From Thermoplasmata archaeon (lineage in GTDB: Archaea > Thermoplasmatota > Thermoplasmata > Halarchaeoplasmatales > Halarchaeoplasmataceae): DNA of 64,000 bases. The notes beneath the pieces were generated by a model. It did no database searches. It was not told where the DNA came from and was given only the letters and a program-made list of their open reading frames with translations. This document shows positions 3,366 through 59,635 of the stretch, piece by piece; the first letter of the stretch is position 1, and each line of letters opens with the position of its first letter. A program made the translations under genes and the position numbers. The DNA lies in assembly GCA_003554965.1 (NCBI GenBank), contig PWHR01000063.1:30134-94133 (forward strand), given 5' to 3'.

Positions 3366-3489
3366 GGGCCTCTTACATGTATATTCAGAAGCTTATTCTT
3401 ATATCTTGCCCACAATACACATTAAAGACCCTAGTACACATGTGTGACCAACATTGATATATCACCGAAATACTTTTTTTGATGAGAAT

Positions 3490-7116: not shown

Positions 7117-7165
7117 ACCCACAAAACCCCTTTTTATTTATTATTTGAAAAGCTTTGGTGGAAAT

Positions 7166-10100
7166 ATGTCAGGCATGAAAAAGAAAACATTAGCTCTGAT
7201 ATGCACGAGCATTATGGTGATTTCATTATTCGCTCTCATTCCAGGAGGTACTGTAACAGGAGAAGAACAATCTAAGGAAGTAATACTAGTAGAGAGTGCA
7301 AATCTAGAAGATGTTAATTCGCTGGAAGGCATGGGCGTAGAAATTTTGGATCAGTACGGACAATATACTTTGATAAATGCAGAAGAAAAGACTATAGATA
7401 ACATACAAGAAAAAGGCTATCAGATCGATACTCTTTCGGAAAGTTCAGAGATACATGTCAAGGGCCATACTTTTGATATTGAGGATAAAGAACCGGATTT
7501 GGATGGCGATATGAGCATCGAAAACCGAGATGATGGTGAAGAAGGCATTCATATAATAAACACAGTTGGTCCGGTCAATCCTGAATGGATCGAGATCCTA
7601 GAAGAAAAAGGGGTGGAGATAATAAATTATGTGCCTAACTATGCTTTTGAAGTGATCATGACCCCTGAGCAAGCAGAACAGGTCGAGGAACTGTTTTTCG
7701 TTGACTGGGTTGGAATTTATCAACCTGAGTTCAAGATGCACAGTCAGATTGAAGAGGCCATGGATAAAGATATGGCACTCAATGTCAGATTAAGACCTGG
7801 TTTTGAACCAGGCATTTTGAATCAGATCAACACCGAACTTGATGTTCTCGCTCAGGAAGATCTTCGAGAAGACGGTTATCGTTTGACTGTAAATGTTGAT
7901 TCTATCGACGAGGTGAAAGATCTTGCAGTAGAAAACGATGTGTACTATATTTCACCATATGTAGAACCGGAACTCCATGGTGAGATAGATGCTCAGATAA
8001 TAGGTGGTGGGGCTTGGATTATGGACGATGAACATGGCACTCCGGATGAACCCTATAGGAAACATGGAAATTATGGTGGTTATATCAATCAGATAGGCTA
8101 TACCGGTCAAGACGTCACAGTAGCTGTCGCCGATACTGGAGTTGGAGATGGAACAACTGGCGATGCCGGACATCCAGATTTCACAGACAGGGTGATTGAT
8201 GGATACGGGTTTAATGATGAGGACGAATGGCAGGATGGCCATGGTCATGGCACGCACGTTTTGGGATCGGCAGCTGGAGATACCCATCACGGTGGCGGTG
8301 AAGAAGTCATTTATGAAGGTGTTTATCCAGGATTTGCCCCATATTATATGGGACAAGGTTTAGCTTCTGAATCTGAAATATTTTCAACTAAAATATTCGA
8401 TGATGGTGGAGCTTTCTTACCTGAGGAGTATTATCCGATAGTTGAAATTCCTGCCCAGGAGAGCGATACTTATGTTCATATGAATTCATGGGGTGCTGGA
8501 ACTAGAGGTGAATATAGCGATTCTGACGAAGCATATGATCAATTAGTAAGAGACGCTGATAGAGACACTGAGAACAACGAAGAAATGGTGATAACAAGTT
8601 CTGCTGGAAACGACGGTCAGGGAGGTGAACAAACAACAGGTAGCCCTGGTCATGCTAAAAACGTCATATCTGTAGGTGCTACAGAAACTTACAAACCAGA
8701 TGGAGGTGAGCACGGAGGTAGTAACACTGATAATCCAGACATGATAGCGGACTTCAGTTCACAAGGTTGGACCGAAGATAATCGGATAAAACCCGATGTG
8801 GTTGCGCCCGGAGATAATATAATTTCAACTGCTAGTCCTGAAGCCCACGGAGAGCCCACTTATTCTTGGATGTCTGGAACATCGATGTCTAATCCAGCCG
8901 TTGCTGGTGCAGCTGCAGTGGTGGTCGAATGGTACGAAGAAAATTTTGATAAAACTCCTAGTCCTGCGATGGTGCGCTCTCTACTCATAAATACCGCCGA
9001 ACCACTTGATGAAGAAAACGGTAATACTGGGTCCGTACCCAATCGAAAAGAAGGTTGGGGTATGGTAGATATATCAAAATTAGAATACCCCTATGATTCT
9101 CCTATACAATTCACACTTGAAGATCAGGATTCTTTGTTAACAACAGGAGAAGTAGATGAACATCTAGTTTCGCCTATGGAAGATGACGAACCTTTAAAGA
9201 TTACGGTTACTTGGACCGATGAAAATGCTTTAGCTGGTGACAGCGAAGGAGGTACACCTACTTTAAAGAACAATCTCGATCTCGAGGTCGAAACCCCTGA
9301 TGGAGAGATAATAAGAGGTAACTCTTTTGATCTCTCAGGGGACGGAGAAAGCGATGACGGTTATACTTACCCAGAAGCAGAAGTCATGGATGACTTCGAT
9401 TATAACGAGGACGGATGGGACGATGTTAACAATGTTCAAAATGTGTTTATACCTCCGGAAGAGCTCGAAGATGGGGCTTACACAGTTAGAGTAAAAGGTA
9501 CTAACGTACCTAGTGATGCTAACAATGATGGACAACCCAATCAGGACTATGCATTATCCGTATTCAATACAGAGCCTCCTTCAGACGGTATTATACGGAT
9601 GGACAGTGATAGATATGCTTTAGAAGATGAAGTAGGTCTTACGGTTTTAGATGGTGAGTTAGGTGAAGAAGAATATATCGATATTGGCATCTATAGTGAT
9701 ACGGATCCAGAAGGTTTGAACTGGACACTTCAGGGATCAGAAGAAACTTTCGAATTCACAGGAGAAGTTCCTATTTCAGAGAGCGAAGGAGAAGATGTAT
9801 TAAAAGTTAGCCATGGTGATTCAATCACTGCTGAATACTGGGATGAAGATATAGGAGACGGAACCGGGTCGTTGAAAACAACAACGGCATATGTGGATGG
9901 TGAGAGTCCATATCCCCCTCTTTTGAGAGAGGTCGACTGGTACGGATTTCAAGAAGTGGATTCCTATCATGACGATGTAGAAGACGGGGATAAAGGTTAT
10001 ACTATTGAAAAATCTCATACAAATGCTAGTGATTGGGGGATTAGATCGAATGACGCATCTGTCGGTAATCATTCTTGGGACTTTGGAGATGGAGAATACA

Positions 10101-13173: not shown

Positions 13174-14922
13174 TCAGAAGTTCGGGATATCCAACCTTTC
13201 AAGCGTCTCTTTTTTAGGTTCACCATCCTGATCCCAGCCCATGCAGTCGTAATACTGATCCAACATCTTCTCCATGTCGAAGACGTTGTCCGAGGAGGTC
13301 CCTCTTTTCAATGGTTTCTCAAATCTTTCAGGCAGGAGATCATCTTCTCTCTCAAAACCCGCTTTCACATTGAACTGTCTCTCCAGGTTGTAGATCCTTT
13401 CACCTATGCCGTGGAGGTCAGAAATAGTGAAATCAACTCCGGTAACACTTCTCAAAAATCTAGAGTAGAACTCTTCATCTAAAGCAAAAGCGCCGAACTT
13501 ACACATTATCAACGAATCTAGGTATGCGTTCCTCTCCTGAGCTCTTTTCACGAGTTCCGGTTTCCCACTAGTCTTGAACCGGTCGAAGAGTTTAGGAACT
13601 CCAAATATCTCTTCCCCTATCAGATAGCCTCTGAGGTGACATCCTCCCCTATTCGAGGTGGCGAAAGATAATGCCTGACCGGCGGCCCCTCTAGGATCAT
13701 AAGCAGGAAGTTCCATCCCTTTGACCGTCATTGATAATTCACAGTCATACTCTTCACACAGCCTCTTCGAACCCTCCGCCAGTTTTTTTCCAACGCCTTT
13801 CCGGTGAGCTATCTTATACAAAAGACCGGTTACATCACTTCCGAACCCTTCCATGTCATCCCAGATTCCCTCTTCCTTCATCTCCATCGCACATGCGATC
13901 GTTCCTCCTGTAGATATAGTATCAAGACCCATTTCGTTGCAGCGGTAGTTCAACTCTGTAACCTTATCCAGATCGAAAAGCCCGATGTTCGAACCGAGGG
14001 CCCATACGCTTTCATATTCCGGTCCTTTACCCTCTTTTCCATCTATTTTCGTCTTCAGCCCACATCTTATGGGACAGGAATAACAACCCTCGTGATCTTC
14101 CACTATCTCTTCTTTCATCCTCTCTCCAGAGAGTTCGTCGGCTTCCTCTTCATCCGCACACTCCCTGAAATTCTTCTTGGAGAACATACCGAGCCAAGTG
14201 ATGAGATTGACCAATATCGGTGTGCCGAACTTTTTCAAGCCTCTAGATGTGACCGGTGAAGAGTCGATCTTGGAAGAGGCTTTTTTCACGTAATCTTTGA
14301 GTTTCTCCTGATCGTTCACATCGACCTTTTTAGACCCTTCCACCGTTATACCTTTCAGATTTTTACTCCCCATGACCGCTCCCAGTCCTCCCCTTCCGAA
14401 GACCCTGTATCCGTCGGTGACTATCGAAGCGTACCTGATCTCGTTCTCACCTGCGGGACCTATGACGGCGGAACGTTTTTCTATCTCATCGAAACACACG
14501 CCGGTCTTACTGCCCCAAAGATCGGTCTGAAACATCTTTATACCGTCTTCAGAGATATCGATGATGACCGGCTCGTCGGCCTGACCTTTGACTATCATTG
14601 CATCTAGACCCGCTCTCTTGAACTCCTTTCCAAAGGAGCCCCCTACATTGGAATCCGTGATGGTGCCGGTTAGTGGGGATTTAGCCGAGGCGGAAAAACG
14701 CCCTGAGGTTGGTATGGTCGTCCCGGTCAATGGCCCAGCCGAAAAGACCAGTACGTTGTCTTCCAAAGGATCAACTCTAGGATCTATCTCATCGATCAAA
14801 AGCCTTGCTCCTAGACCTCTTCCGCCGAGGTACTTTTTGAGCAGACCTTCACCTACCTCATCATATCTAACCTCAAAGGAGGACAGATCTACCCTCGCGA
14901 GTTCGTTCCACCAACCTTTCAT
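13174..14922 (-). CDS. aor: Aldehyde:ferredoxin oxidoreductase (tungstopterin AOR family)
   Basis: GGRGLGA, GRGGLGAVMGSKNLK, CYSCPIRC Fe-S motif, GPEYES, DPRG, NRGGCHL. Confidence 0.92.
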   Translation of the reverse strand: MKGWWNELARVDLSSFEVRYDEVGEGLLKKYLGGRGLGARLLIDEIDPRVDPLEDNVLVFSAGPLTGTTIPTSGRFSASAKSPLTGTITDSNVGGSFGKEFKRAGLDAMIVKGQADEPVIIDISEDGIKMFQTDLWGSKTGVCFDEIEKRSAVIGPAGENEIRYASIVTDGYRVFGRGGLGAVMGSKNLKGITVEGSKKVDVNDQEKLKDYVKKASSKIDSSPVTSRGLKKFGTPILVNLITWLGMFSKKNFRECADEEEADELSGERMKEEIVEDHEGCYSCPIRCGLKTKIDGKEGKGPEYESVWALGSNIGLFDLDKVTELNYRCNEMGLDTISTGGTIACAMEMKEEGIWDDMEGFGSDVTGLLYKIAHRKGVGKKLAEGSKRLCEEYDCELSMTVKGMELPAYDPRGAAGQALSFATSNRGGCHLRGYLIGEEIFGVPKLFDRFKTSGKPELVKRAQERNAYLDSLIMCKFGAFALDEEFYSRFLRSVTGVDFTISDLHGIGERIYNLERQFNVKAGFEREDDLLPERFEKPLKRGTSSDNVFDMEKMLDQYYDCMGWDQDGEPKKETLERLDIPNF

Positions 14923-26996: not shown

Positions 26997-29900
26997 TTAG
27001 TATTTTCCTATCTCTAACAAGATATCAGCGAATGGTGTGTCTCTTTCTAGAGAACACCACTCTTCATGGCCGCACTCCTTGAACAGCTCGACAGCCTCTT
27101 CCAATTTCTGCATAGCTTCTTCCTTCTCACCGATCCGCTTCAACATCCTACTCCAATCAAAAAGGACTTTCGCTTTTTCTTTTTTGTTACCCATCTCATC
27201 GAATATCTCAAAGGCTTTACGATACCCTTCGCTAGCCTGGTACCAGTGATCCTGATCGTAATATATGTTGCCTCTAAGATGGGTTGATTTTCCGTTTTCG
27301 ATCTCCGCTCCCATCTCACGAGCGTGTTTTAGGGACTCTTTTATGAGTTCATGGGCCTCCTGTACTTTCCCATCCGCCATATATATCTCGGCCATAAGGC
27401 GATGGTTGATTATCTCAAATTTTTTGTCCATAAAGTTCTTACCTATAGTCTTGCTATGATCTATGTATAATCTGGATTTTTCGATATCTTTCTTGAGCTT
27501 ATGGAGTTTTCCAAGATAACTCAAAGTTATACCCATCCCATATTCATTGTCGATCTTTCTGAAGATATCTAGAGCTTCGTTGAAAAGTGATTCAGCTCTG
27601 TCCAGTTCACCGATCTCCATGTGGACAGTCCCTTTCTCAACTGAAGTTTCTGCGATACCCTGGGTGAAATCCTTTTTCTTCCTTATATCAAGGCTCTTTC
27701 TGAAGTGATCTAATGCTTTGTTCAGATCCCCTTTTTCTCTGTAGACTTTTCCCAGATTGTAATGAACCAGTCCTACACCGTGTTTTTCGCCCTGCTTTGT
27801 CTTGAGTTTTAAAGTAGCTTTGAATAGTTTCAGGGCTCTATCCAATTTTCCCTTGTCGTATTCGATAACACCTATATTCTGGAAGGTTGATGCCATGCCT
27901 TTTTTATCTTCCATGCTCTTCTCGATATCGAGGCACTTTTCATGGTACTCTAGGGCTTTATCCAGCTCACCCATATCGTTGTAGATTATACCCATGTTTG
28001 ACAGGGCATCTGGGTCTCCTTTTTTCAAACCGGACTTCCTTGTCAACCTATCAGCTTCTTTGAACTCTTCCAGCGCGGTATCATAACGCTGGTCATGCCT
28101 GTAGATGACCCCTAGATTGTTCCTTGATTTCGCTATCATCTCGATATCATCTACCATCTCGCTGATCTCGATCGCTCTCTGCAGATATATCTCCGCCGTA
28201 TCATAATCTGACCGATAATATCCTATAGAACCCAAGTAATGATACACTTCTGCTTCGACTCTAGGTATATTGAGGTTCATGCTTCTATCTTCGAGATCCT
28301 TTAAGATCTCTTCAGCCCTGTCGAATTCGTTCTTCCTCATGTATGTGATAGCTTTCTCTTTGAGACATCTACATCTTTCTTCTTCTAGCAGTTCTTTCTC
28401 CCCTTCTATCTGATCGATTGTTTCTAGAGATCTTTGGACAGATTCGAGTGCTTTATCGAAATCACCTCTCCTTCGGAGTGAGCTTGAAAGTTTCCTCTCC
28501 AACCTCTGTTCGTCGAAGAGATCTTCTGATAGATCTTTAGCCTTCTTTAAATACTTCTCTCCCTTTTTCAATGAACCCCTTTTGATCTCTATCTCGCCCA
28601 ATTTTTCAAATAATTTACGGCGGTAATGTCTCTTTTCTGGAACGCTCTTTTGGATCCTCATGGCTCTCTTATACATGACGATAGCGTTTTCGATTTCATA
28701 TTCTTTTTCAGCTCTTTCTCCCGCTTTGATATAGTGTTTCAACGCTTCTTCATGATTTTCAGACCTAGCATGATGCCTAGCAAGACGAGAAAAATATTCT
28801 TCTTCATCACGGTCATAGTAATCAACAAATAATTCCGCTATCTCCGCATGCTTTTTTCTCCTATAATCCTCGTCAAGATCGCGATATAGTGAGAGCCTGA
28901 TGAGTTCGGTTGGAAACGTGATCATACCACTGATCGGTGTCTCTATAAGATTTGAACTTTTGACCTTTTCAACCGCTGATCCGATCTCTTCCTTTTTTCC
29001 ATCTATCAACTCTGAAAGGATATCTGTCAGTACCTCTCTTTCAAAGAAACTAGATAGGTAAACTACATCTTTCTCTATTTCATCAAAATCTTCTAATCTT
29101 TCTATATAAAATCTCTTGATCCTTTCGGGTATCACCATCTCTTTATTGAGATCAGGATAACGTCCCTCTACAGGGTCTAGCGTACCTCTTTCCAATAACT
29201 CGTCTAGGTATGCCTCGATGAAGAGAGGGAGACCATCGGTTATATTTTGTAAAGAGTTGACAAAACTGTCCGGTATGTTCCTCCTTCCGATCCTTTCAAC
29301 TATCATCTCCCTTATCCCTTTCCACCCGAGAGTTTTTACTTCGAGCACTCTAGACACATCCAAACTTTCCAGCTTCTTTATACTATCCTTCACATCACCT
29401 TTCAGATCATCTTCACGATAGGTACCAAGAAACTGAACTGGATGCTTCTTCAATTCTTCGGAGAGGTATTGGTAGAGTTCTATCAAAGGACCGGTCGCTC
29501 GATGCAAGTCATCAAAAGAAAGGATCAGAGGGTTTTTTTCGGCTCGACTTTTTAACCGACCCGATAGGTCTTCTCGCTGTATATCTTCTTCCAAGACTCT
29601 ATATCCTTCCTCGACTTCAGAGGAGATCAGATCGGTAAAAATTTTTTTAGAACCCTCGTCCACAACTATTGATCCTCCGTTGCATTTCCAATCAAAGAAG
29701 TCGATGTCTAGATCACATACATACTTCTCGCTCTCTTCGATGAGTCTAGATTTACCAGCGCCCAAGGGACCCTTAAAAAGGATCATCCCTTCATCTTCGT
29801 ATCCTTCCTCTAGAAGGCCATCGATCCTTTCTTTCAGAAGATCCATCTCCTCCTCGCGGTCTACGAAAGCATGCTTCTTTCCGATATTATCAAGATTGAT

Positions 29901-30326
29901 CTCGTTGTTTTGGTCGAGGTTTTTGATAACGAAGAGTAGATTTCCTATCCCTTTTATATGCTCGTCGACATCTTTTAATTTTATCTTGTGTGTTTCTTCG
30001 TTTTTGCGCAAAGATATTTTTTCTTCTTCCACCTGTTTTTTGATCTCCTCAGCCTTTTCCTTCCCCTTATCGGTTAGGTTGTAGATGTATCTTTTCTGGA
30101 ATCCACCTGAAACTTTTTGGTATTCGCTTTCAACAATTTTTTCCTCTTCGAGTTCCCTCAATATATCGCCGGCTCTATTTCGCGAAAATTCGACTATATC
30201 CGCTACACCTTCCTGGCAGAGAGCGAACGGAGATTTAGAAAATGATGATCTCCCTTCCTGATATTTTTCCTCCATGCTAAGCAGATGAATCAATATCTTT
30301 TCCTTCCCCAACAGCCTAACTGGCAT
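26997..30326 (-). CDS. Second wHTH - STAND ATPase - TPR protein
   Basis: wHTH (CQEGVADIVEFSRNRAGDILRELEEE...YNLTDKG), Walker A GPLGAGKS, Walker B LSFDDLH, GLPLF motif and TPR array; likely start ATG 30326. Confidence 0.85.
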   Translation of the reverse strand: MPVRLLGKEKILIHLLSMEEKYQEGRSSFSKSPFALCQEGVADIVEFSRNRAGDILRELEEEKIVESEYQKVSGGFQKRYIYNLTDKGKEKAEEIKKQVEEEKISLRKNEETHKIKLKDVDEHIKGIGNLLFVIKNLDQNNEINLDNIGKKHAFVDREEEMDLLKERIDGLLEEGYEDEGMILFKGPLGAGKSRLIEESEKYVCDLDIDFFDWKCNGGSIVVDEGSKKIFTDLISSEVEEGYRVLEEDIQREDLSGRLKSRAEKNPLILSFDDLHRATGPLIELYQYLSEELKKHPVQFLGTYREDDLKGDVKDSIKKLESLDVSRVLEVKTLGWKGIREMIVERIGRRNIPDSFVNSLQNITDGLPLFIEAYLDELLERGTLDPVEGRYPDLNKEMVIPERIKRFYIERLEDFDEIEKDVVYLSSFFEREVLTDILSELIDGKKEEIGSAVEKVKSSNLIETPISGMITFPTELIRLSLYRDLDEDYRRKKHAEIAELFVDYYDRDEEEYFSRLARHHARSENHEEALKHYIKAGERAEKEYEIENAIVMYKRAMRIQKSVPEKRHYRRKLFEKLGEIEIKRGSLKKGEKYLKKAKDLSEDLFDEQRLERKLSSSLRRRGDFDKALESVQRSLETIDQIEGEKELLEEERCRCLKEKAITYMRKNEFDRAEEILKDLEDRSMNLNIPRVEAEVYHYLGSIGYYRSDYDTAEIYLQRAIEISEMVDDIEMIAKSRNNLGVIYRHDQRYDTALEEFKEADRLTRKSGLKKGDPDALSNMGIIYNDMGELDKALEYHEKCLDIEKSMEDKKGMASTFQNIGVIEYDKGKLDRALKLFKATLKLKTKQGEKHGVGLVHYNLGKVYREKGDLNKALDHFRKSLDIRKKKDFTQGIAETSVEKGTVHMEIGELDRAESLFNEALDIFRKIDNEYGMGITLSYLGKLHKLKKDIEKSRLYIDHSKTIGKNFMDKKFEIINHRLMAEIYMADGKVQEAHELIKESLKHAREMGAEIENGKSTHLRGNIYYDQDHWYQASEGYRKAFEIFDEMGNKKEKAKVLFDWSRMLKRIGEKEEAMQKLEEAVELFKECGHEEWCSLERDTPFADILLEIGKY

Positions 30327-30464
30327 TTGTATTGCAATACATCTTCCGATATAAAATATTATCGAAGTCGGTTTAGTATATACTAAAGAAATGACCAAAA
30401 AGATAAGTACATCGGAATCCTTTCATGGTTTAAATCATATAGAGATGAAGTCAGTGGTGGAATT

Positions 30465-41296: not shown

Positions 41297-41935
41297 TCAC
41301 AGGGAAAAGGCCCATACCTCGGTTTCATCGGGCAGGTCTTCCTGTATAAAATCCAGTTCGATCCCCAATTTGTGTGTCTTTTTTTCCGGATACTGTGAGA
41401 AGAAAGGTTCTAGTGTCTTGATATCCAGTGAAAGTCCGCTAGTCTTGTAATGCATGGGGACCGCTATCTTCGGTTCGATCATATCTATCAATTCTTTCGC
41501 CTGATCGGGTTCGATGGTGAAGTTGCCGCCAACGGGTATGAATAAGAAGTCGACTTCTCCTATCTCTTCAAGGATCTCTTCATCAGGGATATGACCTAGA
41601 TCACCTAGATGACAGAAATTGACCCCTTCATTCTCAAACATGTAGATTATGTTCTCCCCTCTTATATCCCCTCCTGATTCGTCGTGATATGTTGCGATGC
41701 CTTTTATCTTCACACCGTTGATCTCCTTTTCTGATGCCTCATCTATAATCTTGCTGTCTTCTTTTTCTACCTCTCTCACCGCATTATGATCGTAGTGGTC
41801 GTGAGAGACCAAGATGATATCTCCTTCCACTTGGGGAGGAGTTATGCCTATACTTTTTCCGTCGTGGGGATCAGTGACTATTATATTTTCCTTTCCGATC
41901 TCAAAACAAGCATGACCATGCCATCTTATCCTCAT
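41297..41935 (-). CDS. Metallo-beta-lactamase fold hydrolase
   Basis: WHGHACF, TDP, SHDHYDH, HLGDLG, PMHY. Confidence 0.9.
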   Translation of the reverse strand: MRIRWHGHACFEIGKENIIVTDPHDGKSIGITPPQVEGDIILVSHDHYDHNAVREVEKEDSKIIDEASEKEINGVKIKGIATYHDESGGDIRGENIIYMFENEGVNFCHLGDLGHIPDEEILEEIGEVDFLFIPVGGNFTIEPDQAKELIDMIEPKIAVPMHYKTSGLSLDIKTLEPFFSQYPEKKTHKLGIELDFIQEDLPDETEVWAFSL

Positions 41936-42047
41936 CTTTTGCCACCTAGGAAAATAGGATTGAATCTGAAGATTTAAGATTTTTGCCCGGTCGCGACGAC
42001 TTTTCAAGGGTAAAAATAATAAATGATAGGGTCGGATTGAGGTAGCG

Positions 42048-46543: not shown

Positions 46544-47440
46544 ATGGACCAGATAAGAAGTTTCCTAGAGATCAGCAGGTGGCGTATCCAGCTTGTTTCT
46601 TTAGCCACCATACTTTTGGGACCGCTTTATGCGGCTGGTTCATTAGGAGATCTACTGACTTGGGACCTCTTTTTGTTCGCTGTACTGTTTATCTTTTCTA
46701 TAACCTTCGCCTGCAATATCAACTGCTATCACGATCTCAAAGTGGACTCCTTGAGAAAAAAAAATCTTGCCCACGCAGTTTTGAATCTTGGTAGGAAAAA
46801 ACTGAGGAAGATAATGCTTATTGAAAGCATTGTAGTTTTTCTGTTGGTCTTTATATTATTTCTCAGAGGTTATATTGCGGTTACAGTCATAACTCTTTTC
46901 GGTTGGATTCTATCTTATACCTACTCCTCACCCCCGATCAGACTTAAAACTAGAGGAGTGTTAAGTCCGATCCCTGTGAATATCGGGGTCTATGTACTGC
47001 CTATTCTAGCTGGTCACTTGATAATCTCTTCCGATGTGAGTCTGATATTCCTTCTTTTCATCTTAGGTTACGCGCTTCTGAATCTCGGGATAAACCTAGT
47101 AAACGTCGCAGAAGATCATCGGGAAGACAAGAAATGTGGTATAAAGACGATCTCTCATGTTGTTGGTATCAAAAACACCATGGTGCTTTCTTCCCTGACC
47201 ATTATCCTTGGTTCGATCATAATCCTATTCAGTCTATACAGTATGGTCAATAATCTAACTTCAGGATTTGTTTATACGGTTATGCTGATATGTTTATTGA
47301 CTGCTTTTCTTGACATAACTTCCGTTTTGAAGCACAAAAATATAGAAAGAAAGACAAAGGAAAAAGGGGCTAGACTGCCTTTGTATTTTGTAAGCACTCG
47401 CTATCCCATGGTTGTGCTCCTATTGATTAATCTTCTCTGA
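46544..47440 (+). CDS. UbiA-superfamily prenyltransferase
   Basis: Multi-TM; Asp-rich motifs NCYHDLKVD and NVAEDHREDKKCGIKT; YSSPPIRLK (MenA-like loop). Confidence 0.85.
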   Translation: MDQIRSFLEISRWRIQLVSLATILLGPLYAAGSLGDLLTWDLFLFAVLFIFSITFACNINCYHDLKVDSLRKKNLAHAVLNLGRKKLRKIMLIESIVVFLLVFILFLRGYIAVTVITLFGWILSYTYSSPPIRLKTRGVLSPIPVNIGVYVLPILAGHLIISSDVSLIFLLFILGYALLNLGINLVNVAEDHREDKKCGIKTISHVVGIKNTMVLSSLTIILGSIIILFSLYSMVNNLTSGFVYTVMLICLLTAFLDITSVLKHKNIERKTKEKGARLPLYFVSTRYPMVVLLLINLL

Positions 47441-47449
47441 GAGATCAAC

Positions 47450-48535
47450 TCACTTCTCTGGATCTTTGATAAGCTTGTTAAAATACGCCGGCAGTTTTTC
47501 TTCAGTATTATCCAATGCGAGACATCCACAGATGGGTTCTGAATATTCTTGATTCATCTCGCTCCAAATTTTTTCTATATCCTGTTCGTATATATTCCCC
47601 CAGGTTTCCCTCAACATATCACAGGGATAGACGTCTCCTTGAGCACTGATATGCATGCGATTGTAACCTGCGGTGCATCCCATAAATCTCGAACTATCCA
47701 TGAAAGGGCCTGAGATGATCCTAGGGTAATCTGGATTCTTTTCCTTCTGAACATTCATCAAGTATTCTCTCTCATAAGGTTCTAAAATTTCATCTCTAGG
47801 ACCTATAATCGGCTCAAATATAGCTACATCAGTCACTCCTTTGGATCGAACGAATTTCAGGTAATCGTCTAGTTCCTCGATCATATCAGAAGTGACCACC
47901 ACCCACGTGGAAGTCAACATCCCTGCTTTTTTCACATTCCTTATCGTTTTCAAACTTCGTTCATATGCACCATCAAATCCCATCAGTTCATCGTTCTTCT
48001 TCTTTTCATGATGTTCTAGACCAACGAAAACACCTTGGCAACCAGCTTTTTTCAAAGATTTAGCCCTTTCATCAGATATGAAACCCGGGGAGGATATCAG
48101 AGAAATCGAAGAACCCGAAGCAGCTCTTACTAGTTCTTCAAGATCGTCTCTGAGTAAGGGGTTGCCTCCGGTAAATAAGAACTGAAATGTGCCGAGTTCT
48201 TTCAATCTCTTTATTGTGGAAAGCAGAACTTCCTTTTCGAGTACGCCTTCTTCGTTCCGAGTTACGCAGTGCCAGCAGTCATTTTTGCACTCAGTTGTTA
48301 ACGAGATGTTGACTATCTCGGGTACGGGCTCACCTTCAGAAGCTTTAAGTTGAGCTTTAAGAAAAGTATCGAAAGCTTCTGAAGGATAAGGAGGGAGATG
48401 TATAGAGAGGACCTTTTTTCCGTCCAATCTATCTGGTACTTTGGAATTATGGGTGCTTAGAGCATATCTTAATACGAATATCTTAAAACGCAGCGGAAGT
48501 TTTCTAAGCTTTCGATCAAAGAGAAGTTTCAACAT
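47450..48535 (-). CDS. Radical SAM / SPASM(twitch)-domain protein
   Basis: CKNDCWHC (CX3CX2C), TGGNPLLR, and C-terminal GCTAG...ISAQGDVYPC...CGC. Confidence 0.9.
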   Translation of the reverse strand: MLKLLFDRKLRKLPLRFKIFVLRYALSTHNSKVPDRLDGKKVLSIHLPPYPSEAFDTFLKAQLKASEGEPVPEIVNISLTTECKNDCWHCVTRNEEGVLEKEVLLSTIKRLKELGTFQFLFTGGNPLLRDDLEELVRAASGSSISLISSPGFISDERAKSLKKAGCQGVFVGLEHHEKKKNDELMGFDGAYERSLKTIRNVKKAGMLTSTWVVVTSDMIEELDDYLKFVRSKGVTDVAIFEPIIGPRDEILEPYEREYLMNVQKEKNPDYPRIISGPFMDSSRFMGCTAGYNRMHISAQGDVYPCDMLRETWGNIYEQDIEKIWSEMNQEYSEPICGCLALDNTEEKLPAYFNKLIKDPEK

Positions 48536-48538
48536 ATT

Positions 48539-49729
48539 TTATACCTCTAGAGTTAAGTCCTTAGCATCTATGAGTTCCTCGATGACCTTCTCTATATCTT
48601 CTTCCGGTTTTTCGCATGATTCTTTTATTTCCCCTAAAGTGTGCTCTCCATCCAGCAGCTTCAAAAGTTGGAGTATGTCTTTTTCAAACTCCATTTCACA
48701 TTCTCGGAAAACGATCTTTTCTCCGCTCTGCTCGTATGAGCCAAGTAGCTTAGGTCTGTAGCTCTCTTTCAAATCCGGTATCTCAAAATAGGTGGGCTCT
48801 CCATCCTTGTGGATAGGATAGAACGCGAAAACCGGAGCCTCTGCTCCGAATTTTTTCTTAAAAACGTACCGGTAGCTCTCTAATCCTGTAGTGGTCCCCT
48901 CACCTACAGCTTTCGCGAGAGAAAAAGGCGTGCCTGTAACGTCACCAGCTGCATAAAGACCCTTATCTATCTTTCCTCTTCTATCGGTCTTTATGAAACC
49001 GTTCTCATCCTTTTCGCAGTCGATGATATCGGTGGTCGAAGCTGAGAGTTGATATGATTCGAAATCTATATTGATATGATCCCCTACGATCTCATCATTT
49101 TTAGTTATAACTTTGATCTTTTCTTTTCCATCTTCTTCAAAGGTCTCATACTTTCTGATATTTTTCCCTTCATCTAACACTCTTTTCACATCCATCCTGC
49201 CCTGATTTATATCTTCAAAGAACTCCAAAGTTTTCTTTATTTCATGAGTTCCTACGAATATGATAGTCTTGCCTTTCTCCTCTTCACACAGTTTTTCGAA
49301 ATGATCTTCCATGAACCTGTAGCCTTTCAACGTACCGAAGAGCTTATCTCCGAAATGTTCTCTTTCGTTCCAAGTCATCCTCATGCCCGTTGCTATTATC
49401 ACCGACAGAGACCAATATTCTTCCTTATCCGTAGTAACTTTGAATAGGTCGTCTTTTTTTTCTACGCTGAGGACCTTCTCATTTTTAAGAGGGATAGAAT
49501 AGTCCTTCATATCTTTCATCAGGCTATCTCTCACTTTTCCTTTTTCAAACATCCAACCGTCTCCGGTCATCCTGACGTCGGTCCAATCGGATATACCACC
49601 AGGAGAGTAATTGGAGATGACCATCACGCTAGCCGGGATCAAGTTATAGGTTCTAATCCTTCTAGCTCTTGCAGCCGCTGAAAGACCGGCAGGCCCTGCT
49701 CCGACTATTATTATGTCGCTATCATACAT
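48539..49729 (-). CDS. Thioredoxin-reductase-fold flavoprotein lacking CxxC, with C-terminal PqqD/RRE-like wHTH
   Basis: GAGPAG, IIATG and GLYAAGDV FAD motifs; no CxxC; FVGTHE in place of GxGxxA; tail LLKLLDGEHTLGEI...EDIEKVIEELID. Confidence 0.75.
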   Translation of the reverse strand: MYDSDIIIVGAGPAGLSAAARARRIRTYNLIPASVMVISNYSPGGISDWTDVRMTGDGWMFEKGKVRDSLMKDMKDYSIPLKNEKVLSVEKKDDLFKVTTDKEEYWSLSVIIATGMRMTWNEREHFGDKLFGTLKGYRFMEDHFEKLCEEEKGKTIIFVGTHEIKKTLEFFEDINQGRMDVKRVLDEGKNIRKYETFEEDGKEKIKVITKNDEIVGDHINIDFESYQLSASTTDIIDCEKDENGFIKTDRRGKIDKGLYAAGDVTGTPFSLAKAVGEGTTTGLESYRYVFKKKFGAEAPVFAFYPIHKDGEPTYFEIPDLKESYRPKLLGSYEQSGEKIVFRECEMEFEKDILQLLKLLDGEHTLGEIKESCEKPEEDIEKVIEELIDAKDLTLEV

Positions 49730-49757
49730 CTTATCACTCTTATAAGCTTTCTATCAA

Positions 49758-50219
49758 TCATATACCTGTAACTTCATTGGATCTTATCATGTCAAAAACC
49801 CAATCGGGGAAGGTTTCAAATTCGAGTTCCTTTCCAGTTTCAAGTATGATCTGACCTTTTTCAGGCTGTACTTCTATCTTGTCGCCTTCATCGACTTGAT
49901 CTAAGATACCTTCTATTTTGATCGGCCAGATGCCATTGTTGATGCAGTTCCTGAACATATATCGAGAAAAACTTTCCGCGATCACACACTTTATCCCTGA
50001 CAATTTTATCGCCCAAGCTCCGCTCTCTCTTCCAGATCCCATACCGAAATACCTTCCGGCAACGATGATGTCGCCTTCTTCAACTGAACGATAGAATCCA
50101 GGTTCAACTCCTTCCATCAACCCTTTTAAGAGTTTCTCCTTATCTAAAGAGAAATATTCGCTTGGATGGATCTCGTCCAGGGTCACATCGTGGCCAAAAA
50201 CTCTTGCTCTACCTTTCAT
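49758..50219 (-). CDS. 3-isopropylmalate/homoaconitate dehydratase-family small subunit (LeuD/HacB-like)
   Basis: GDIIVAGRYFGMGSGRE, VIAESFSR..FRNCINNG. Confidence 0.88.
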   Translation of the reverse strand: MKGRARVFGHDVTLDEIHPSEYFSLDKEKLLKGLMEGVEPGFYRSVEEGDIIVAGRYFGMGSGRESGAWAIKLSGIKCVIAESFSRYMFRNCINNGIWPIKIEGILDQVDEGDKIEVQPEKGQIILETGKELEFETFPDWVFDMIRSNEVTGI

Positions 50220-51402
50220 CTTTTGCACCTCCGGTCGTTATGAAACCGTTGAGAGCTGAACGAGCGCAGACCTCAGCGTTCGCTATAAATATATCTCCTC
50301 CACCCATCCTTCCAGGATAGTTTCGGTTCTGGGTGGTGAGACATCTCTCTCCTTTCGCCATGAGTCCCTTATCTATCCCCGGACAAGGGCCACAGCTCGG
50401 GTTCAAGATCACGGCTCCCGCATCGACCAGTTTTTGGATAAAACCCTTTTCCAAAGCTTGGGTCATCACAAGTTTTGATGCCGGTGTAACCAAAAATCTG
50501 ACGTCTTCATGGACCTTCTTTCCTTCTAGTACCTCTACAGCCGTTTTCAGATCTGATAATCTTCCACTAGCACACGAACCAAGAAATACCTGATCTATGG
50601 TTTTACCTTCCTCTGAATACACCTTATCCACATTATATGGTCGGTGAGGTTTGGCTAAAAGGGGTTCTTCGATCGAAATATTGATATTTTCTGAGTGATC
50701 ATCCTCATCATATCCTGGAAAAGAGAAAGAACTGCTCATATCGAACCTCCTTAAATACTCTCTAGTGAGCTCGTCGGGAGGAAATACTGCCGATTTAGCT
50801 CCAGTTTCTGCTGCCATATTGCATATAGTCATCCTTCCGTCCATCTTTATTCCCGTTTTATCGACGAATTCTAAAAAGCGGTAATTGCCCTCATATTTCA
50901 GTTCATCTAAAATCGCAAGTGCGATATCAGTATGATCTTCTCCATCTTCTATCTCCACCTTGATAGTCTCTGGTACCTTGAGCCATATCTCTCCTTTCTT
51001 CAATATCTCCACTGTGTCACTAGCTCCGAAACCAACACCGAAAGCTCCCAGGGCGCCGTACATAGTAGAGTGACTGTCTATCCCCGCCACGATCTCACCC
51101 GGCTTCACTCTGCCTTCACACATCACCTGGTGACAGATACCTTCAGACTCTGCATGATCCTTTATCCCTTTTTCCTTGACGAAATCTCTAAACCTTTTTA
51201 CGAAGTCTGCTCTCTCCTCTGTACTCGGAGGGCAGAAATGATCTACTACTGTAGTAACTTTTTCTGGATCCCATATCTTCTCGTCCTCCATATCATCGAA
51301 TATCAGCGGAGCGTTTCCATCATGGATCATGACTCTATCGACTGATCGGGTTACGTATTCCCCTTCCTCTCCTTCAAGCATCTTTTCGGGGATGGTCGTC
51401 AT
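50209..51402 (-). CDS. 3-isopropylmalate/homoaconitate dehydratase-family large subunit (LeuC/HacA-like)
   Basis: DH, GICHQV, DSH, CNM..E.GAK, Fe-S ligands GSCASGR and SCGPC, NRNYPGRMG. Confidence 0.9.
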   Translation of the reverse strand: MTTIPEKMLEGEEGEYVTRSVDRVMIHDGNAPLIFDDMEDEKIWDPEKVTTVVDHFCPPSTEERADFVKRFRDFVKEKGIKDHAESEGICHQVMCEGRVKPGEIVAGIDSHSTMYGALGAFGVGFGASDTVEILKKGEIWLKVPETIKVEIEDGEDHTDIALAILDELKYEGNYRFLEFVDKTGIKMDGRMTICNMAAETGAKSAVFPPDELTREYLRRFDMSSSFSFPGYDEDDHSENINISIEEPLLAKPHRPYNVDKVYSEEGKTIDQVFLGSCASGRLSDLKTAVEVLEGKKVHEDVRFLVTPASKLVMTQALEKGFIQKLVDAGAVILNPSCGPCPGIDKGLMAKGERCLTTQNRNYPGRMGGGDIFIANAEVCARSALNGFITTGGAKDER

Positions 51403-52637
51403 CGATCTTCCCTCAATTCGTCGACGATACTCCAGAACCTATCTTCGGAGAAACCGAGCATTTCTTCGTCGTAATCGGTCTTGGTCTCTAAGAACTCTTC
51501 TATCTTCCATTTTCTATCAATAGTTTTTTCCTTTTCGATACGTCTAAGAATATCCTCTATCTTTTCATCAGAAAGTGAGATGTCTTTAGATTCTAACAGA
51601 TTTTTTACATAAGTCGGTCCAGAATGCTTTCCAAGCACGAACTCCCTCTCTCGCCCCACCTCTTCAGGACTTATCGGTTCGTAAGAATCTGTATGGGATA
51701 GTATTCCTGAAACGTGAACATCACTTTCATGCCTGTAAGAATTGAAACCGGAGATAGGTTTTTGAGGTGATAGATACAATCCCGACTTCTTTTCCACCAT
51801 CTTACAGAGTTCGTATAGATAAGTAGTATCTACTCCTGTGTCCACGTTCAACAGTTTTTCGGCGATCATGATGACCTCTTCCATAGCTGGATTGCCTGAA
51901 CTGTCTCCGAGCGAGTTCACAGTCAAGGTCGGATAATTCACTCCCGCTCTGATAGCAGCTACGGTGTTAGCCACTGCAAGACCGAAATCGTTGTGGCAGT
52001 GCACACCCCACTCCTCTCCACCTACCGATCCCACCACTTCTCGGGTGAAATTATACATCGAATCAGGTGTTATCGAGCTCGCAGTATCGCATATGATTAT
52101 GCGCCTGGTACCTCTTTCTCTGACGTCTGATAGGAGTTCTTTTACGAATTTTATATTTGATCTAGTTGTATCTTCGCTTATAAAGTCGTAATTCAACCCC
52201 AGCTCCTCTGCGTACTCTATAGTCTCTAGGACGTTATCTCTACATTCTTTTTCGGTCATATCGTTCTTATAGTGAAGATGGAATTTACTCGTAGTCGAAA
52301 ATATATATAGATCTTCAACTCCAAGTTCCACCGCAGTATCTATATCTTCTTTATTGCATCTGACAGTTGCTCCTACTTCAGCATCTAGATCCAATCCGAT
52401 CAGTTCGCGGATCGCCTCTCTTTCCCCTTCGGACATCATCGGAAACCCCGCGTCGATAACCGCGACTCCCATCTCATCCATCAATTTGGCTAGTTCTACT
52501 TTGTCTTCAGCATCGAAAACTACTCCGGGACTCTGTTCACCGCCTCTGAGAGTTTCGTCCCAGATGTGTATTTTTTCTGGAAGATGGTCTGCATCCATAA
52601 AATTCATATTATTATCTTCGATCAAAGGATCCATCAT
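51399..52637 (-). CDS. DRE-TIM homocitrate/isopropylmalate/citramalate-synthase-like enzyme with atypical motifs and no regulatory domain
   Basis: DETLRGGEQSPG, HCHNDFGLAVAN, GDSSGN, HESDVH, VLGKHSG. Confidence 0.85.
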   Translation of the reverse strand: MMDPLIEDNNMNFMDADHLPEKIHIWDETLRGGEQSPGVVFDAEDKVELAKLMDEMGVAVIDAGFPMMSEGEREAIRELIGLDLDAEVGATVRCNKEDIDTAVELGVEDLYIFSTTSKFHLHYKNDMTEKECRDNVLETIEYAEELGLNYDFISEDTTRSNIKFVKELLSDVRERGTRRIIICDTASSITPDSMYNFTREVVGSVGGEEWGVHCHNDFGLAVANTVAAIRAGVNYPTLTVNSLGDSSGNPAMEEVIMIAEKLLNVDTGVDTTYLYELCKMVEKKSGLYLSPQKPISGFNSYRHESDVHVSGILSHTDSYEPISPEEVGREREFVLGKHSGPTYVKNLLESKDISLSDEKIEDILRRIEKEKTIDRKWKIEEFLETKTDYDEEMLGFSEDRFWSIVDELREDR

Positions 52638-52663
52638 TACACCGATGGAATCATGATATATGG

Positions 52664-52671
52664 TTTATAAA
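52664..52671 (-). promoter_or_regulatory. TATA box of the synthase-dehydratase-flavoprotein-rSAM operon
   Basis: TTTATAAA 27 nt upstream of ATG 52637, the expected spacing for a leaderless or short-leader archaeal transcript. Confidence 0.5.
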
Positions 52672-52675
52672 TAGC

Positions 52676-53282
52676 TTACTGAATATCTTTGATGTTATAA
52701 AATTCTTGGTTGATCTTCTCGAAATTCGTTTTTTTTTGAGATATCCTGTTCACCTTAAATATGGTTGAAACATCCATTATCTTTTCAGTCTCCACTAGGC
52801 CGTCAGCTTTAAGAGTATTACCAGTCTCTACGATATCAACGATAGCGTCGGCGATGCCGATCTTTGGAGCAAGTCCTATTGATCCGTTCAGCTTGAACAC
52901 ATCCATTTTTACTCCCATCTGTTCCAGATACTTTTCCATTATATTGACATATTCAGTAGATATACTGTATCAATCGAGTTCCTCGATATCTAATATCCTG
53001 CACATTGGCATTGCAAAACTCAATCTACAAATTCTAAAAGACAGCTCTAAAGGAACGAATACGTCGTTATCTATTTCCTCTTAAACATCCTTCCCAGAAA
53101 TACCGATATCTATACCGTGTTCAACGTACACCGGCACGTCTAAAGCCTTCACCACAGAAACAGAACACGCTCCGTTCTTATATGGTATTTTTTGTCTTCT
53201 AGATAGGCTATATTCTACCGGCCTTTTCTAACATCTCAACGCTTTAGTCGAACAATCTTACTTTAAGCAGTACTATTTTCAT
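52676..53282 (-). pseudogene. hisG: ATP phosphoribosyltransferase (short-form HisG) pseudogene
   Basis: MKIVLLKVRLFD*SVEMLEKAG, frameshift, then [25 protein letters not shown]...CRL...[16 protein letters not shown]...[30 protein letters not shown]; several stops plus a frameshift. Confidence 0.88.
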
Positions 53283-53284
53283 GA

Positions 53285-58705: not shown

Positions 58706-59635
58706 TTACCAGAGGTTCTTTTTCTTCACTTCAAACAACCGATCCGCTAACTCTTCGATGTACTCCCTCCTCTCTATCCTTTCCAGGAAAACATCCGGTA
58801 TGCCACTTTCTCCAATAAAGGCACCGACCATACCTACGCACATCGCCCCGATAGTATCCCTATCTCCTCTAACTGTAACAGCGTTCATCAAGGCCTCTAT
58901 AAAATCTTCAGGATTTTTGAGAAAGCTGAAAACTGCATAGGGAACAGAGCGGTGGATGAAAACGTCTATACCAAGCTCACCAGCTGCTTCCTTACAACCG
59001 GCATCTTCTCCTAACAGCTCTCTAACCGCAAAAAATGCCTCTGAAAAGACTTCGGTTTCAGATTCTGCTGCAAGCATCTGAGAGAAATCCGCTTCATTTA
59101 TACGTCCTGCCTTGAACGCCTCACTGATCCCTAAGGCCATAACTGCTGCCCCGTCCTTTCCTAAAGGGTGAACATGGGTCACTTAGGCGGAAAGCTTCGC
59201 CTTTTCTTTCACCTCTTCTTTCTCCCCTGAATAAAACAAGCTTACCGGAGCGACCCGCATAGCCGACCCGTTTCCTTTCGAGCCTTCCCCTCCAAACGAG
59301 GTTTCGGCCGCTTCCACGTAACCTTCCTTCTCTCCGTTTCCGACCATCTCAAAGATCTTTAGAGGACCCTGACCATAGCCGCGCCACGGTTCCTCGAGAT
59401 AGTTCTCCCGGAAAGTATCACCCAAGTGACGGTGATCCAGCTCTCCTTCTTTTTCCACAAGTGATTCCACGATACCCAACACCATGGCGGTATCGTCTGT
59501 ATAGCCGATCGTCTCCCTTTTCTCGACTTCTTTCATCAATTCCTCTTCATCTTTATACTTAAAAGCGAGTTGACCAACTGCATCCCCTACAGCGGTTCCC
59601 AGTAAACCTCCTCTTATCCCTTCTTCACTCTCCAT
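58706..59635 (-). pseudogene. ADP-ribosylglycohydrolase (ARH/DraG family) interrupted by one in-frame TAA
   Basis: GTAVGDAVG, YTDDTAM, SKGNGSAMRVAP, then LSA*VTH (TAA at 59183-85), GDRDTIGAM. Both halves are in the same frame. Confidence 0.85.

Follow-up and report, generated by a model that had tools for sequence, protein, structure and literature searches.

The elongation of 2-oxoacids, as in leucine, alpha-aminoadipate (AAA) lysine and coenzyme B formation, follows a textbook logic of synthase, isomerase and NAD-dependent decarboxylating dehydrogenase, and the canonical operon encodes LeuA or CimA, LeuC, LeuD and LeuB. The Thermoplasmata operon L051/L052 (10001-15903) is of this kind, with genes for a synthase, LeuC, LeuD and an Iso_dh-family dehydrogenase followed by a thiolase gene and a DUF35/OB-fold gene. 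Here, we describe a relative of this operon at positions 46544-52671 of a 64,000-nucleotide stretch, hereafter termed the window, of contig PWHR01000063.1 from a Thermoplasmata archaeon (assembly GCA_003554965.1). It consists of six intact genes, i.e., a minus-strand operon for a synthase, LeuC, LeuD, a flavoprotein and a radical S-adenosylmethionine (SAM) enzyme, and a convergent plus-strand gene for a UbiA-superfamily prenyltransferase (Table 1). The first three genes are homologous to those of the canonical operon and stand in the same order, the products from L051/L052 being 38% (synthase), 36% (LeuC) and 35% (LeuD) identical. The cassette differs in that its fourth gene encodes a flavoprotein of the thioredoxin reductase (TrxR) fold and not an Iso_dh-family dehydrogenase, the synthase has lost an Asp ligand, the specificity loop of LeuD reads YFSL instead of YLTI or YLVY, and genes for the radical SAM enzyme and UbiA come after. 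The cassette is a real conserved operon that occurs in two domains of life, and the position of the fourth gene suggests, on positional and not on biochemical grounds, that a flavoprotein has displaced the dehydrogenase.

Two further groups of described systems resemble the locus in part. The methanogen enzymes for coenzyme B (AksA, the HacAB-type pair AksD/AksE, and AksF) and those of the AAA-lysine route share with it a short synthase without regulatory domain and an archaeal-type LeuCD-like hydro-lyase. Phosphonate modules that mimic the tricarboxylic acid cycle, exemplified by FrbC/FrbA/FrbB and by Pms/Pmi with the B12-radical SAM protein PhpK, likewise combine a LeuA/homocitrate synthase homolog with an aconitase-family isomerase in a specialized cluster, where a B12-radical SAM enzyme may be present as well; presumably, they still use an enzyme of the isocitrate dehydrogenase type. 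A phosphonate pathway was rejected for the cassette, since phosphoenolpyruvate mutase occurs in none of the loci according to the Pfam lists.

No description of the gene combination was found in the searchable literature, in agreement with an earlier note on this DNA, made from the sequence alone, which had not recognized it either. The parts all stem from superfamilies already known, and their logic is an extension of an established pathway type; the system is thus not categorically new. Database names of its members are generic or wrong, e.g., "thioredoxin reductase," "homoaconitate hydratase" and "LeuA family protein."

Gene Order of the Cassette and Its Conservation

As read from the sequence, the synthase and LeuC genes are joined by an ATGA overlap (51399-51402) and the LeuC and LeuD genes overlap by 11 nt (50209-50219). 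Gaps of 28 nt (49730-49757) and 3 nt (48536-48538) separate the LeuD from the flavoprotein gene and the latter from the radical SAM gene, the stop codon of which faces that of UbiA at a distance of 9 nt. All six genes are considered intact because they align colinearly with their orthologs. The coordinates, families, overlaps and gaps given in the earlier note were all recovered from open reading frames (ORFs), Pfam/NCBIfam comparisons and the sequence, and the TATA box that it had assigned to the genes was found as TTTATAAA, the putative promoter of the five-gene operon.

Table 1. Features of the cassette and of one decayed and one probably decayed gene, in window positions.
Feature	Position	Strand	Evidence or remark
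UbiA-superfamily prenyltransferase, 298 aa	46544-47440	+	PF01040 90 bits
Radical SAM/SPASM-type enzyme, 361 aa	47450-48535	-	PF04055 74 bits, PF13186 35 bits
FAD protein, low-Mr thioredoxin reductase fold, 396 aa	48539-49729	-	Pyr_redox_2/3 (Pfam/NCBIfam)
Winged-helix, weakly RRE/PqqD-like tail of the flavoprotein, ~72 aa (residues 325-396)	48542-48757	-	Predicted topology
LeuD/HacB-type small subunit, 153 aa from ATG	49758-50219 (to 50228 with GTG start)	-	PF00694; TIGR02087 143 bits (cut-off 109 bits)
LeuC/HacA-type dehydratase large subunit, 397 aa	50209-51402	-	PF00330 238 bits
LeuA/homocitrate synthase-family condensing enzyme, 412 aa	51399-52637	-	PF00682 211 bits, PF22617 (HCS_D2) 62 bits, both above gathering score
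TATA-like box TTTATAAA (putative promoter)	52664-52671	-	Sequence read; ~27 nt upstream of synthase ATG, immediately past the stop codon of the hisG remnant
hisG pseudogene	52676-53284	-	87-aa ORF corresponding to the C-terminal half of HisG
ADP-ribosylglycohydrolase, two same-frame ORFs (probable pseudogene)	58706-59635	-	Pfam profile positions 1-151 and 153-286

The genomic contexts examined were those of flavoprotein homologs of 27-94% identity and fell into four groups; a metagenome search with an archaeal-only fragment yielded seven loci. A scan of genome contigs with the full flavoprotein alignment picked up the generic FAD motif and led to ordinary thioredoxin reductases only (L007-L037). 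Beyond the window, the order synthase-LeuC-LeuD-flavoprotein is present in 13 fetched loci, nine of them archaeal, three bacterial and one (L049) of unknown origin. The archaeal cassette, in which the radical SAM gene follows, was found in the window, in a Thermoplasmata metagenome-assembled genome (MAG; L003), in L005 (the same place as L048), L038, L042, L043, L044 and L047 and, truncated, in L045, while the even shorter L046 preserves only LeuD-flavoprotein-radical SAM. In the bacterial version (L006, L040, L041), which stems from MAGs of Thermodesulfobacteriota and Pseudomonadota, genes for a B12-radical SAM enzyme, synthase, LeuC, LeuD, flavoprotein, LuxE and LuxC are arranged with or without a peptidase U32 gene, and L041 has a second B12-radical SAM gene. 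L049 combines genes for a PaaK-like AMP-ligase, synthase, LeuC, LeuD, flavoprotein, aldehyde dehydrogenase and class I/II aminotransferase; no radical SAM gene is visible on this contig of only 9 kb. Finally, the flavoprotein-radical SAM pair occurs without synthase and LeuCD genes alongside in L004, where it adjoins genes for UbiB, a metallo-beta-lactamase (MBL)-fold protein, UbiA and DUF116, in L050, where the radical SAM gene precedes the flavoprotein gene, and in L039, a contig that starts at the flavoprotein gene, so that genes upstream of it may be missing.

Of the 14 fetched loci with the flavoprotein gene, 13 have a radical SAM gene adjoining it, as does the window, and L049 is the exception. 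The invariant core is synthase-LeuC-LeuD-flavoprotein, and the flavoprotein is the hub, nearly always located beside some radical SAM enzyme. Since the order recurs in independent contigs down to ~30-40% protein identity, the arrangement is far beyond chance. The single coupled gene unit postulated in the earlier note is therefore borne out by the same order in archaeal loci, bacterial loci and L049, and the synteny comparison that it proposed found the neighbors conserved. Judged from their residues, the members of the cassette look catalytically competent.

Some minor features of these loci were recorded in passing. Genes for Cys-rich DUF116 proteins and Drg-type GTPases recur near the cassette or UbiA (L004 9283-11380, L043 3738-5437, L038 ~13176-13381). 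The MBL-fold gene of L004 belongs to Lactamase_B_3, as does a gene at 41297-42007 of the window. In L045, tblastn splits the radical SAM gene (3154-4069) into two segments that overlap (query residues 1-236 and 9-74), which hints at a frameshift, duplication or assembly artifact where the contig ends.

A Flavoprotein in the Position of LeuB

The group of synthases next closest to that of the cassette, at 38-46% identity, includes the one from L051/L052. As the Iso_dh gene is the fourth gene of that operon, the flavoprotein of the cassette occupies the LeuB slot. Using the L051 Iso_dh protein as query, tblastn detected no Iso_dh/LeuB homolog at E ≤ 1 in the 64-kb window or in the 15 fetched cassette loci, and Pfam found no Iso_dh domain in the large ORFs of the window. 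The absence of a LeuB/AksF-type dehydrogenase claimed in the earlier note thus extends to all these loci, none of which contains a complete chain-elongation set for leucine, AAA-lysine or coenzyme B in the sense that an Iso_dh-family beta-decarboxylating dehydrogenase is part of it. A LysW/LysX-type (ATP-grasp or amino-acid-kinase) domain was likewise not found among the window ORFs scanned with Pfam.

The AlphaFold2 (AF2) model of the flavoprotein (pLDDT 89.5) matches TrxR, FFTR and TrxR-type FNR structures in Foldseek at E ~1e-17, the closest folds including the NAD(P)H-independent TrxR of Thermoplasma acidophilum (TaTrxR, 3cty) and the ferredoxin-dependent FFTR (6gna). With these proteins and the TrxR-type FNR 3lzw, it shares the two-domain FAD fold, and its NAD(P)H motif is degenerate or absent as in FFTR and TaTrxR: in the family alignment the FAD motifs are conserved, FVGT replaces the GxGxxG motif for NADPH, TLKGY stands at the position of CxxC and no Cys is conserved at all. 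It differs from these relatives in the missing CxxC, in an extra winged-helix tail of 72 aa and in its placement in a LeuCD operon, and sequence identity to them amounts to only 16-24%. Despite matching fold and FAD motifs, it is not a low-Mr thioredoxin reductase, given the lack of CxxC, the degenerate NAD(P)H site and a TIGR01292 score of 62 bits vs. a cut-off of 343. Polar residues E122, Y137, D222, S225 and K293 are conserved specifically in the family, which is rare, with 102 representatives at E ≤ 1e-30 among 1.84 billion.

For the C-terminal tail, the AF2 model predicts three to four strands, three helices and one further strand. When a profile of the tails was compared with the Protein Data Bank (PDB), PqqD (5sxy) came first, at E = 0.23 only. 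Pfam PqqD (PF05402) matches one of 18 homologs at 9e-8 and not the tail from the window, the other homologs matching generic winged helix-turn-helix families. As in PqqD/RRE and radical SAM-SPASM pairs (pyrroloquinoline quinone (PQQ), mycofactocin and many ribosomally synthesized and post-translationally modified peptides (RiPPs)), a weakly PqqD-like winged helix is encoded beside a radical SAM/SPASM-class enzyme as its presumed partner; here, however, the domain is part of a flavoprotein fusion and resembles PqqD only marginally, the SPASM domain is shortened and no precursor peptide was found. When all ORFs of 25 aa or longer from 14 loci were compared with one another and the stretches upstream of UbiA were inspected, only shadow ORFs of known genes emerged and no conserved small ORF or precursor peptide in or around the cassette. 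The earlier note had termed the tail an RRE: a winged-helix domain of compatible topology is indeed predicted, while the marginal PqqD similarity and the missing peptide in the 14 loci leave the designation "RRE-like" plausible but weak.

An Atypical Synthase and Its Dehydratase Pair

The synthase is composed of an HMGL-like TIM barrel and a post-barrel HCS_D2 region as expected for the LeuA family, and lacks a C-terminal regulatory domain. PDB relatives are a homocitrate synthase (6ktq) and an isopropylmalate synthase (IPMS, 3rmj). The protein falls below every NCBIfam equivalog and subfamily cut-off for LeuA, CimA, AksA, NifV and LysS, the best scores being 374 (cut-off 517), 370 (485) and 319 (463, nifV). 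An assignment to nitrogenase cofactor genes was rejected, as the NifV cut-off is not reached and a NifB-type match is missing.

The metal site of the LeuA family is formed by Asp or Glu following a conserved Arg and by two His residues. In IPMS from Mycobacterium tuberculosis, Asp81, His285 and His287 coordinate the metal and Arg80 binds the substrate (PMC5498780), and because Asp81 next to Arg80 is a ligand there (PMC5498780), the Gly in the corresponding place of the window synthase (R31-G32) replaces a metal ligand. The motif reads R-G-G-E-Q instead of R-D/E-G-E-Q, whereas the HxH (H213, H215) and HES..H motifs are kept. R-G-G-(E/D)-Q is present in all 39 members of the clade (the window protein and 38 database clusters of ≥54% identity), vs. 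RDGEQ or REGEQ in all 82 more distant matches. The RGGEQ clade, with internal identities of 54-98%, is monophyletic in a neighbor-joining tree and has a sister group that holds the L049-type synthase together with Asgard sequences. As the bacterial cassette synthases retain Asp or Glu, the change is specific to the archaeal clade. The earlier note had called the enzyme atypical and had asked for its phylogeny; cut-offs, Gly substitution and a tree that places the clade apart all agree with this view. With its naturally occurring exchange of Asp for Gly at the metal site, this DRE-TIM synthase offers enzymologists a ready test case.

Many short LeuA-family synthases (P0182, P0194, P0197, P0245, P0257, P0259 and others) are named "homoaconitate hydratase" in NCBI records, apparently a systematic misannotation. 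This name or "2-isopropylmalate synthase" is attached to many cassette-type synthases; provided that the pathway proposed below is correct, it is probably a mistake to interpret their genes in metabolic reconstructions as ones for leucine or lysine formation.

LeuC and LeuD are a hydro-lyase pair of the LeuCD/HacAB type, consisting of an aconitase catalytic domain with three Cys residues and a swivel-domain small subunit. LeuC exceeds NF001614 and TIGR01343, both subfamily cut-offs, but none at the equivalog level, and the three Fe-S Cys ligands (GSCxxGR, CGPC) and the DSH motif are conserved. The aconitase-type pair described in the earlier note is accordingly confirmed by Pfam, by NCBIfam subfamily cut-offs and by the retained ligands. 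The small-subunit loop presumably sets the specificity, YLRT being taken to mark homoaconitase and YLVY isopropylmalate isomerase. In the alignment it reads YFSL in the window and in all archaeal homologs, vs. YLVY in MJ1277 (3vba) and YLRT in MJ1271 (2pkp), and thus fits neither type, while that of L051/L052 (YLTI) is of the isopropylmalate isomerase type. LeuD furthermore carries GSGRES instead of GSSRE; its top PDB match is the isopropylmalate/citramalate isomerase from Methanocaldococcus jannaschii. Compared with the coenzyme B and AAA-lysine enzymes, the cassette lacks the Arg-Thr of YLRT that defines HacB, does not reach the equivalog cut-offs for HacA/HacB and NifV/LysS, and has no AksF. 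A "citrate-like" intermediate as proposed in the earlier note finds no support in a LeuD loop without the Arg that marks tricarboxylate (homoaconitase) enzymes.

Radical SAM Enzyme and UbiA Prenyltransferase

The NCBIfam models that come nearest to the radical SAM enzyme (GeoRSP, AhbD, NirJ2) score far below their cut-offs and no equivalog applies. A function in heme or siroheme formation of the Ahb/NirJ type was rejected (≤97 bits vs. a cut-off of 500). The protein has a conserved basic N-terminal extension of 70 aa, a conserved CxxxCxxC motif and CX12GX4C followed by a single CGC in place of CX2CX5CX3C, such that its SPASM domain resembles a shortened, twitch-like version with about one auxiliary cluster.

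The prenyltransferase shares PF01040, the fold and the second Asp-rich motif with AfUbiA (4tq3), DGGGP synthase (6m31/7bpu) and chlorophyll synthases and clearly belongs to the UbiA superfamily. Its AF2 model (pLDDT 92.9) yields Foldseek TM scores of ~0.65-0.7 (~0.68 to AfUbiA 4tq3 and to DGGGP synthase 6m31). D64, D68, D191 and D195 are invariant and the second motif, DxxxD, is present; on the other hand, the first motif is altered to N-C-x-x-D-x-x-x-D instead of NDxxDxxxD, so that its first Asp is gone. With 16-80 bits vs. cut-offs of 180-494, the protein stays below all named NCBIfam subfamilies (DGGGPS, MenA, UbiA/Coq2, CtaB, ChlG/BchG, MqnP). Identity as DGGGP synthase was specifically rejected (≤36 bits vs. 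278-353). The subfamily comprises 36 clusters at ≥38% identity, after which identity drops to 27% for the nearest outside relatives, annotated as chlorophyll synthase; it is about as large as the synthase clade (38 clusters), and ten contigs are apparently common to the UbiA list and the synthase/flavoprotein lists.

An orthologous convergent UbiA gene occurs in seven of the nine informative archaeal loci. In L005, L038, L042, L043 and L044, the orthologs (41-59% identity) are convergent and located directly downstream of the radical SAM gene, and in L004 the MBL-fold gene intervenes. Because the outer flanks vary from locus to locus (SMC, PGK, M18 peptidase, DUF116, a second UbiA), it is the adjacency of UbiA and cassette itself that is conserved. 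The UbiA gene noted earlier as converging on the cluster hence proved to be a conserved neighbor from a small, lineage-restricted subfamily. The flavoprotein-radical SAM pair has additional isoprenoid-related genes at its side, namely a GGR-like gene in L047, UbiB in L004 and, in L039 (2812-6999), genes for a GGR-like FAD protein, a CruF-like Caroten_synth protein, a UbiE-like methyltransferase and a UbiA that belongs to another subfamily. In L042, a tRNA-like sequence (~6650-6730) was seen by eye in the interval that separates UbiA from the gene for phosphoglycerate kinase.

A Proposed Pathway and Its Alternatives

We propose that the cassette serves a self-contained, specialized pathway for a 2-oxoacid-derived small molecule, built on the first half of chain elongation and ending in a prenylated product, a scheme that as a whole is tentative and to which we give slightly less than an even chance. 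The synthase, with its altered metal site, would condense an acyl-CoA, probably acetyl-CoA, with a 2-oxoacid not resembling 2-oxoglutarate to a 2-substituted malate, which the LeuCD-type Fe-S dehydratase would dehydrate or isomerize. On the product, the NAD(P)H-independent flavoprotein would perform a redox step, either the oxidation of a 3-substituted malate to the elongated 2-oxoacid or the reduction of an ene-intermediate. Its winged-helix tail may connect it with the radical SAM enzyme through physical docking, the delivery of electrons or both, and the radical SAM enzyme would then catalyze a radical transformation, e.g., decarboxylation, dehydrogenation or C-C bond formation. In the archaeal version, UbiA would add a polyprenyl chain, leading to a membrane-bound product such as a lipid head-group or a quinone-like carrier. 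Bacteria would replace the radical SAM and UbiA steps by B12-radical SAM enzymes and by the carboxylate-activating and -reducing pair LuxE/LuxC. Carboxylate activation and reduction to an aldehyde in bacteria and the aminotransferase of L049 imply that the core would deliver a carboxylic or 2-oxo acid that is finished differently in each lineage.

If this holds true, the textbook logic gains an alternative third step catalyzed by a TrxR-fold flavoprotein, a new flavoprotein-radical SAM partnership is mediated by an RRE-like domain outside of peptide chemistry, and the locus points to an unknown prenylated metabolite in poorly known anaerobic halophilic archaea. A more far-reaching joint version appears doubtful to us. 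It envisages an unknown prenylated redox carrier or lipid head-group of halophilic Thermoplasmata (Ca. Halarchaeoplasmatales), a flavin enzyme that displaced LeuB and would pass electrons from an alkylmalate to the docked radical SAM enzyme, a synthase metal site completed by the substrate, and an ancient, portable "alkylmalate-flavoprotein" module as the core shared with Thermodesulfobacteriota.

Several points weigh against the proposed pathway. Its synthase and LeuCD steps derive from family membership, those of flavoprotein, radical SAM enzyme and UbiA from position combined with family. We know of no TrxR-fold flavoproteins that oxidize 2-hydroxyacids or reduce enoates. The loss of the Asp ligand could mean that condensing activity is altered or even lost, and the similarity of the tail to PqqD is below significance for the window protein. 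UbiA is encoded on the strand opposite to the operon; L003 and L047 do not have it beside the cassette and no bacterial version has it at all, so that it may represent an addition specific to one lineage or a mere neighbor. Lastly, an RGGEQ synthase of 58% identity (P0182) is encoded on a 2.5-Mb Thermoplasmata contig from which no flavoprotein is among the matches listed; in this genome the cassette may be incomplete or split, and hence not always complete.

Two alternatives, both rather unlikely in our view, concern single components. According to the first, the flavoprotein is not a pathway enzyme but an electron-transfer partner, i.e., a ferredoxin-type reductase that docks by its tail and reductively activates the radical SAM enzyme, which itself transforms an alkylmalate or alkylmaleate. 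RRE/PqqD domains bind radical SAM partners, the flavoprotein gene has a radical SAM gene as its neighbor in the window and in all but one of the 14 fetched loci that contain it, L004, L050 and L039 included, the nearest folds of the flavoprotein are TrxR-type FNR and ferredoxin-dependent FFTR, and it has neither CxxC nor an obvious substrate-type motif. Such a role is hard to reconcile with a degenerate NAD(P)H site, which leaves the electron source unclear, and a mediator seems superfluous if ferredoxin is the donor. Moreover, the flavoprotein sits exactly at the LeuB position, is also encoded in L049, the 9 kb of which show no radical SAM gene, and has with E122, Y137, D222, S225 and K293 conserved polar residues suggestive of a substrate site.

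In the second alternative, which touches one step only and is compatible with the other readings, UbiA is merely a conserved neighbor and the five-gene operon leads to a soluble product, i.e., an unusual 2-oxoacid, amino acid or cofactor precursor. Being convergent to the operon, UbiA is on a separate transcript, and besides its absence from the cassette's side in L003 and L047, the LuxE/LuxC genes of the bacterial versions without UbiA and the aldehyde dehydrogenase and aminotransferase genes of L049 point to aldehyde or amino-acid products. The adjacency has nevertheless been kept in seven loci at 41-59% UbiA identity despite differing outer flanks, the UbiA subfamily is just as small and just as restricted in lineage as the cassette, and in L039 and L047 the flavoprotein-radical SAM pair is accompanied by further isoprenoid genes, all of which speaks against this alternative.

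We consider it very improbable that the genes are ordinary ones for leucine/isoleucine, AAA-lysine or coenzyme B elongation, with the dehydrogenase encoded elsewhere and flavoprotein, radical SAM enzyme and UbiA unrelated. LeuC and LeuD do pass generic NCBIfam subfamily cut-offs and the top PDB match of LeuD is an isopropylmalate/citramalate isomerase, yet the synthase is below all equivalog cut-offs and devoid of the metal-ligand Asp, the LeuD loop is of neither known type, and translational coupling links the flavoprotein to the other genes, together with which it is conserved in two domains of life. In addition, the canonical Iso_dh operon forms a separate, more distant Thermoplasmata clade, and the decay of the neighboring hisG argues against selection for amino-acid prototrophy. 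Least probable of all is a peptide-scaffold (RiPP-like or LysW-like) pathway, in which the RRE-like tail would bind a small precursor or carrier peptide for modification by the radical SAM/SPASM enzyme: tail topology, the PF05402 match of one homolog (9e-8), PqqD as best PDB profile match and the SPASM class of the enzyme are outweighed by the lack of a conserved small ORF in or around the cassette in 14 loci, by bacterial versions that keep the tail yet pair it with B12- and not SPASM-type radical SAM enzymes, by a SPASM domain cut down to about one auxiliary cluster and by core partners that are small-molecule enzymes.

Surroundings of the Cassette

The cassette is intact although the adjacent hisG and, probably, the ADP-ribosylglycohydrolase gene have decayed. 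Upstream of the remaining hisG ORF, the same frame is still HisG-like with at least two further in-frame stops, and the N-terminal part is unrecognizable; hisS, which adjoins the pseudogene, is intact. The heavy decay of hisG beside an intact cluster had been recognized in the earlier note and is evident from these stops and from the colinearity of the six genes with their orthologs. The ADP-ribosylglycohydrolase gene, probably a second pseudogene, is split by a single in-frame TAA (59183-59185), which is not a selenocysteine or pyrrolysine codon. The AT-richness formerly ascribed to the cluster proved incorrect, as its GC content is 42.4% vs. 43.2% for the whole window; only UbiA (39.6%) and a neighboring membrane ORF (38.2%) lie below the cluster value.

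The window lies on a contig from a soda-lake sediment metagenome (JGI 3300000557, SL_8KL_010_SED). Among the flavoprotein clusters, one that shares 68% identity with the window protein contains a sequence of "Candidatus Natronoplasma sp." (Thermoplasmata, Ca. Halarchaeoplasmatales), a relationship that is consistent with the very acidic proteins of the window. The rest of the window carries housekeeping genes and genes of an anaerobic heterotroph (aldehyde:ferredoxin oxidoreductase, class I fumarase, hydantoinases, aminotransferases, FtsZ, Thi4, ribosomal proteins), and tRNA and Rfam scans of the window gave no matches. hisS is also found ~7 kb upstream of the L051/L052 operon, which belongs to a Thermoplasmata MAG and whose thiolase and DUF35 genes constitute the archaeal acetoacetyl-CoA thiolase pair.

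Two large STAND/MalT-like AAA_16 ATPase and TPR proteins of 1027 and 1133 aa are encoded on the minus strand at 282-3365 and 26997-30398, and a similar protein is present in L038. Finally, two giant proteins of secreted type are encoded on the plus strand at 3454-12976, a NosD/beta-helix protein of 1220 aa and a subtilase of 1967 aa with many Ig/Fn3 domains, whose ORF coordinates overlap by 44 nt.

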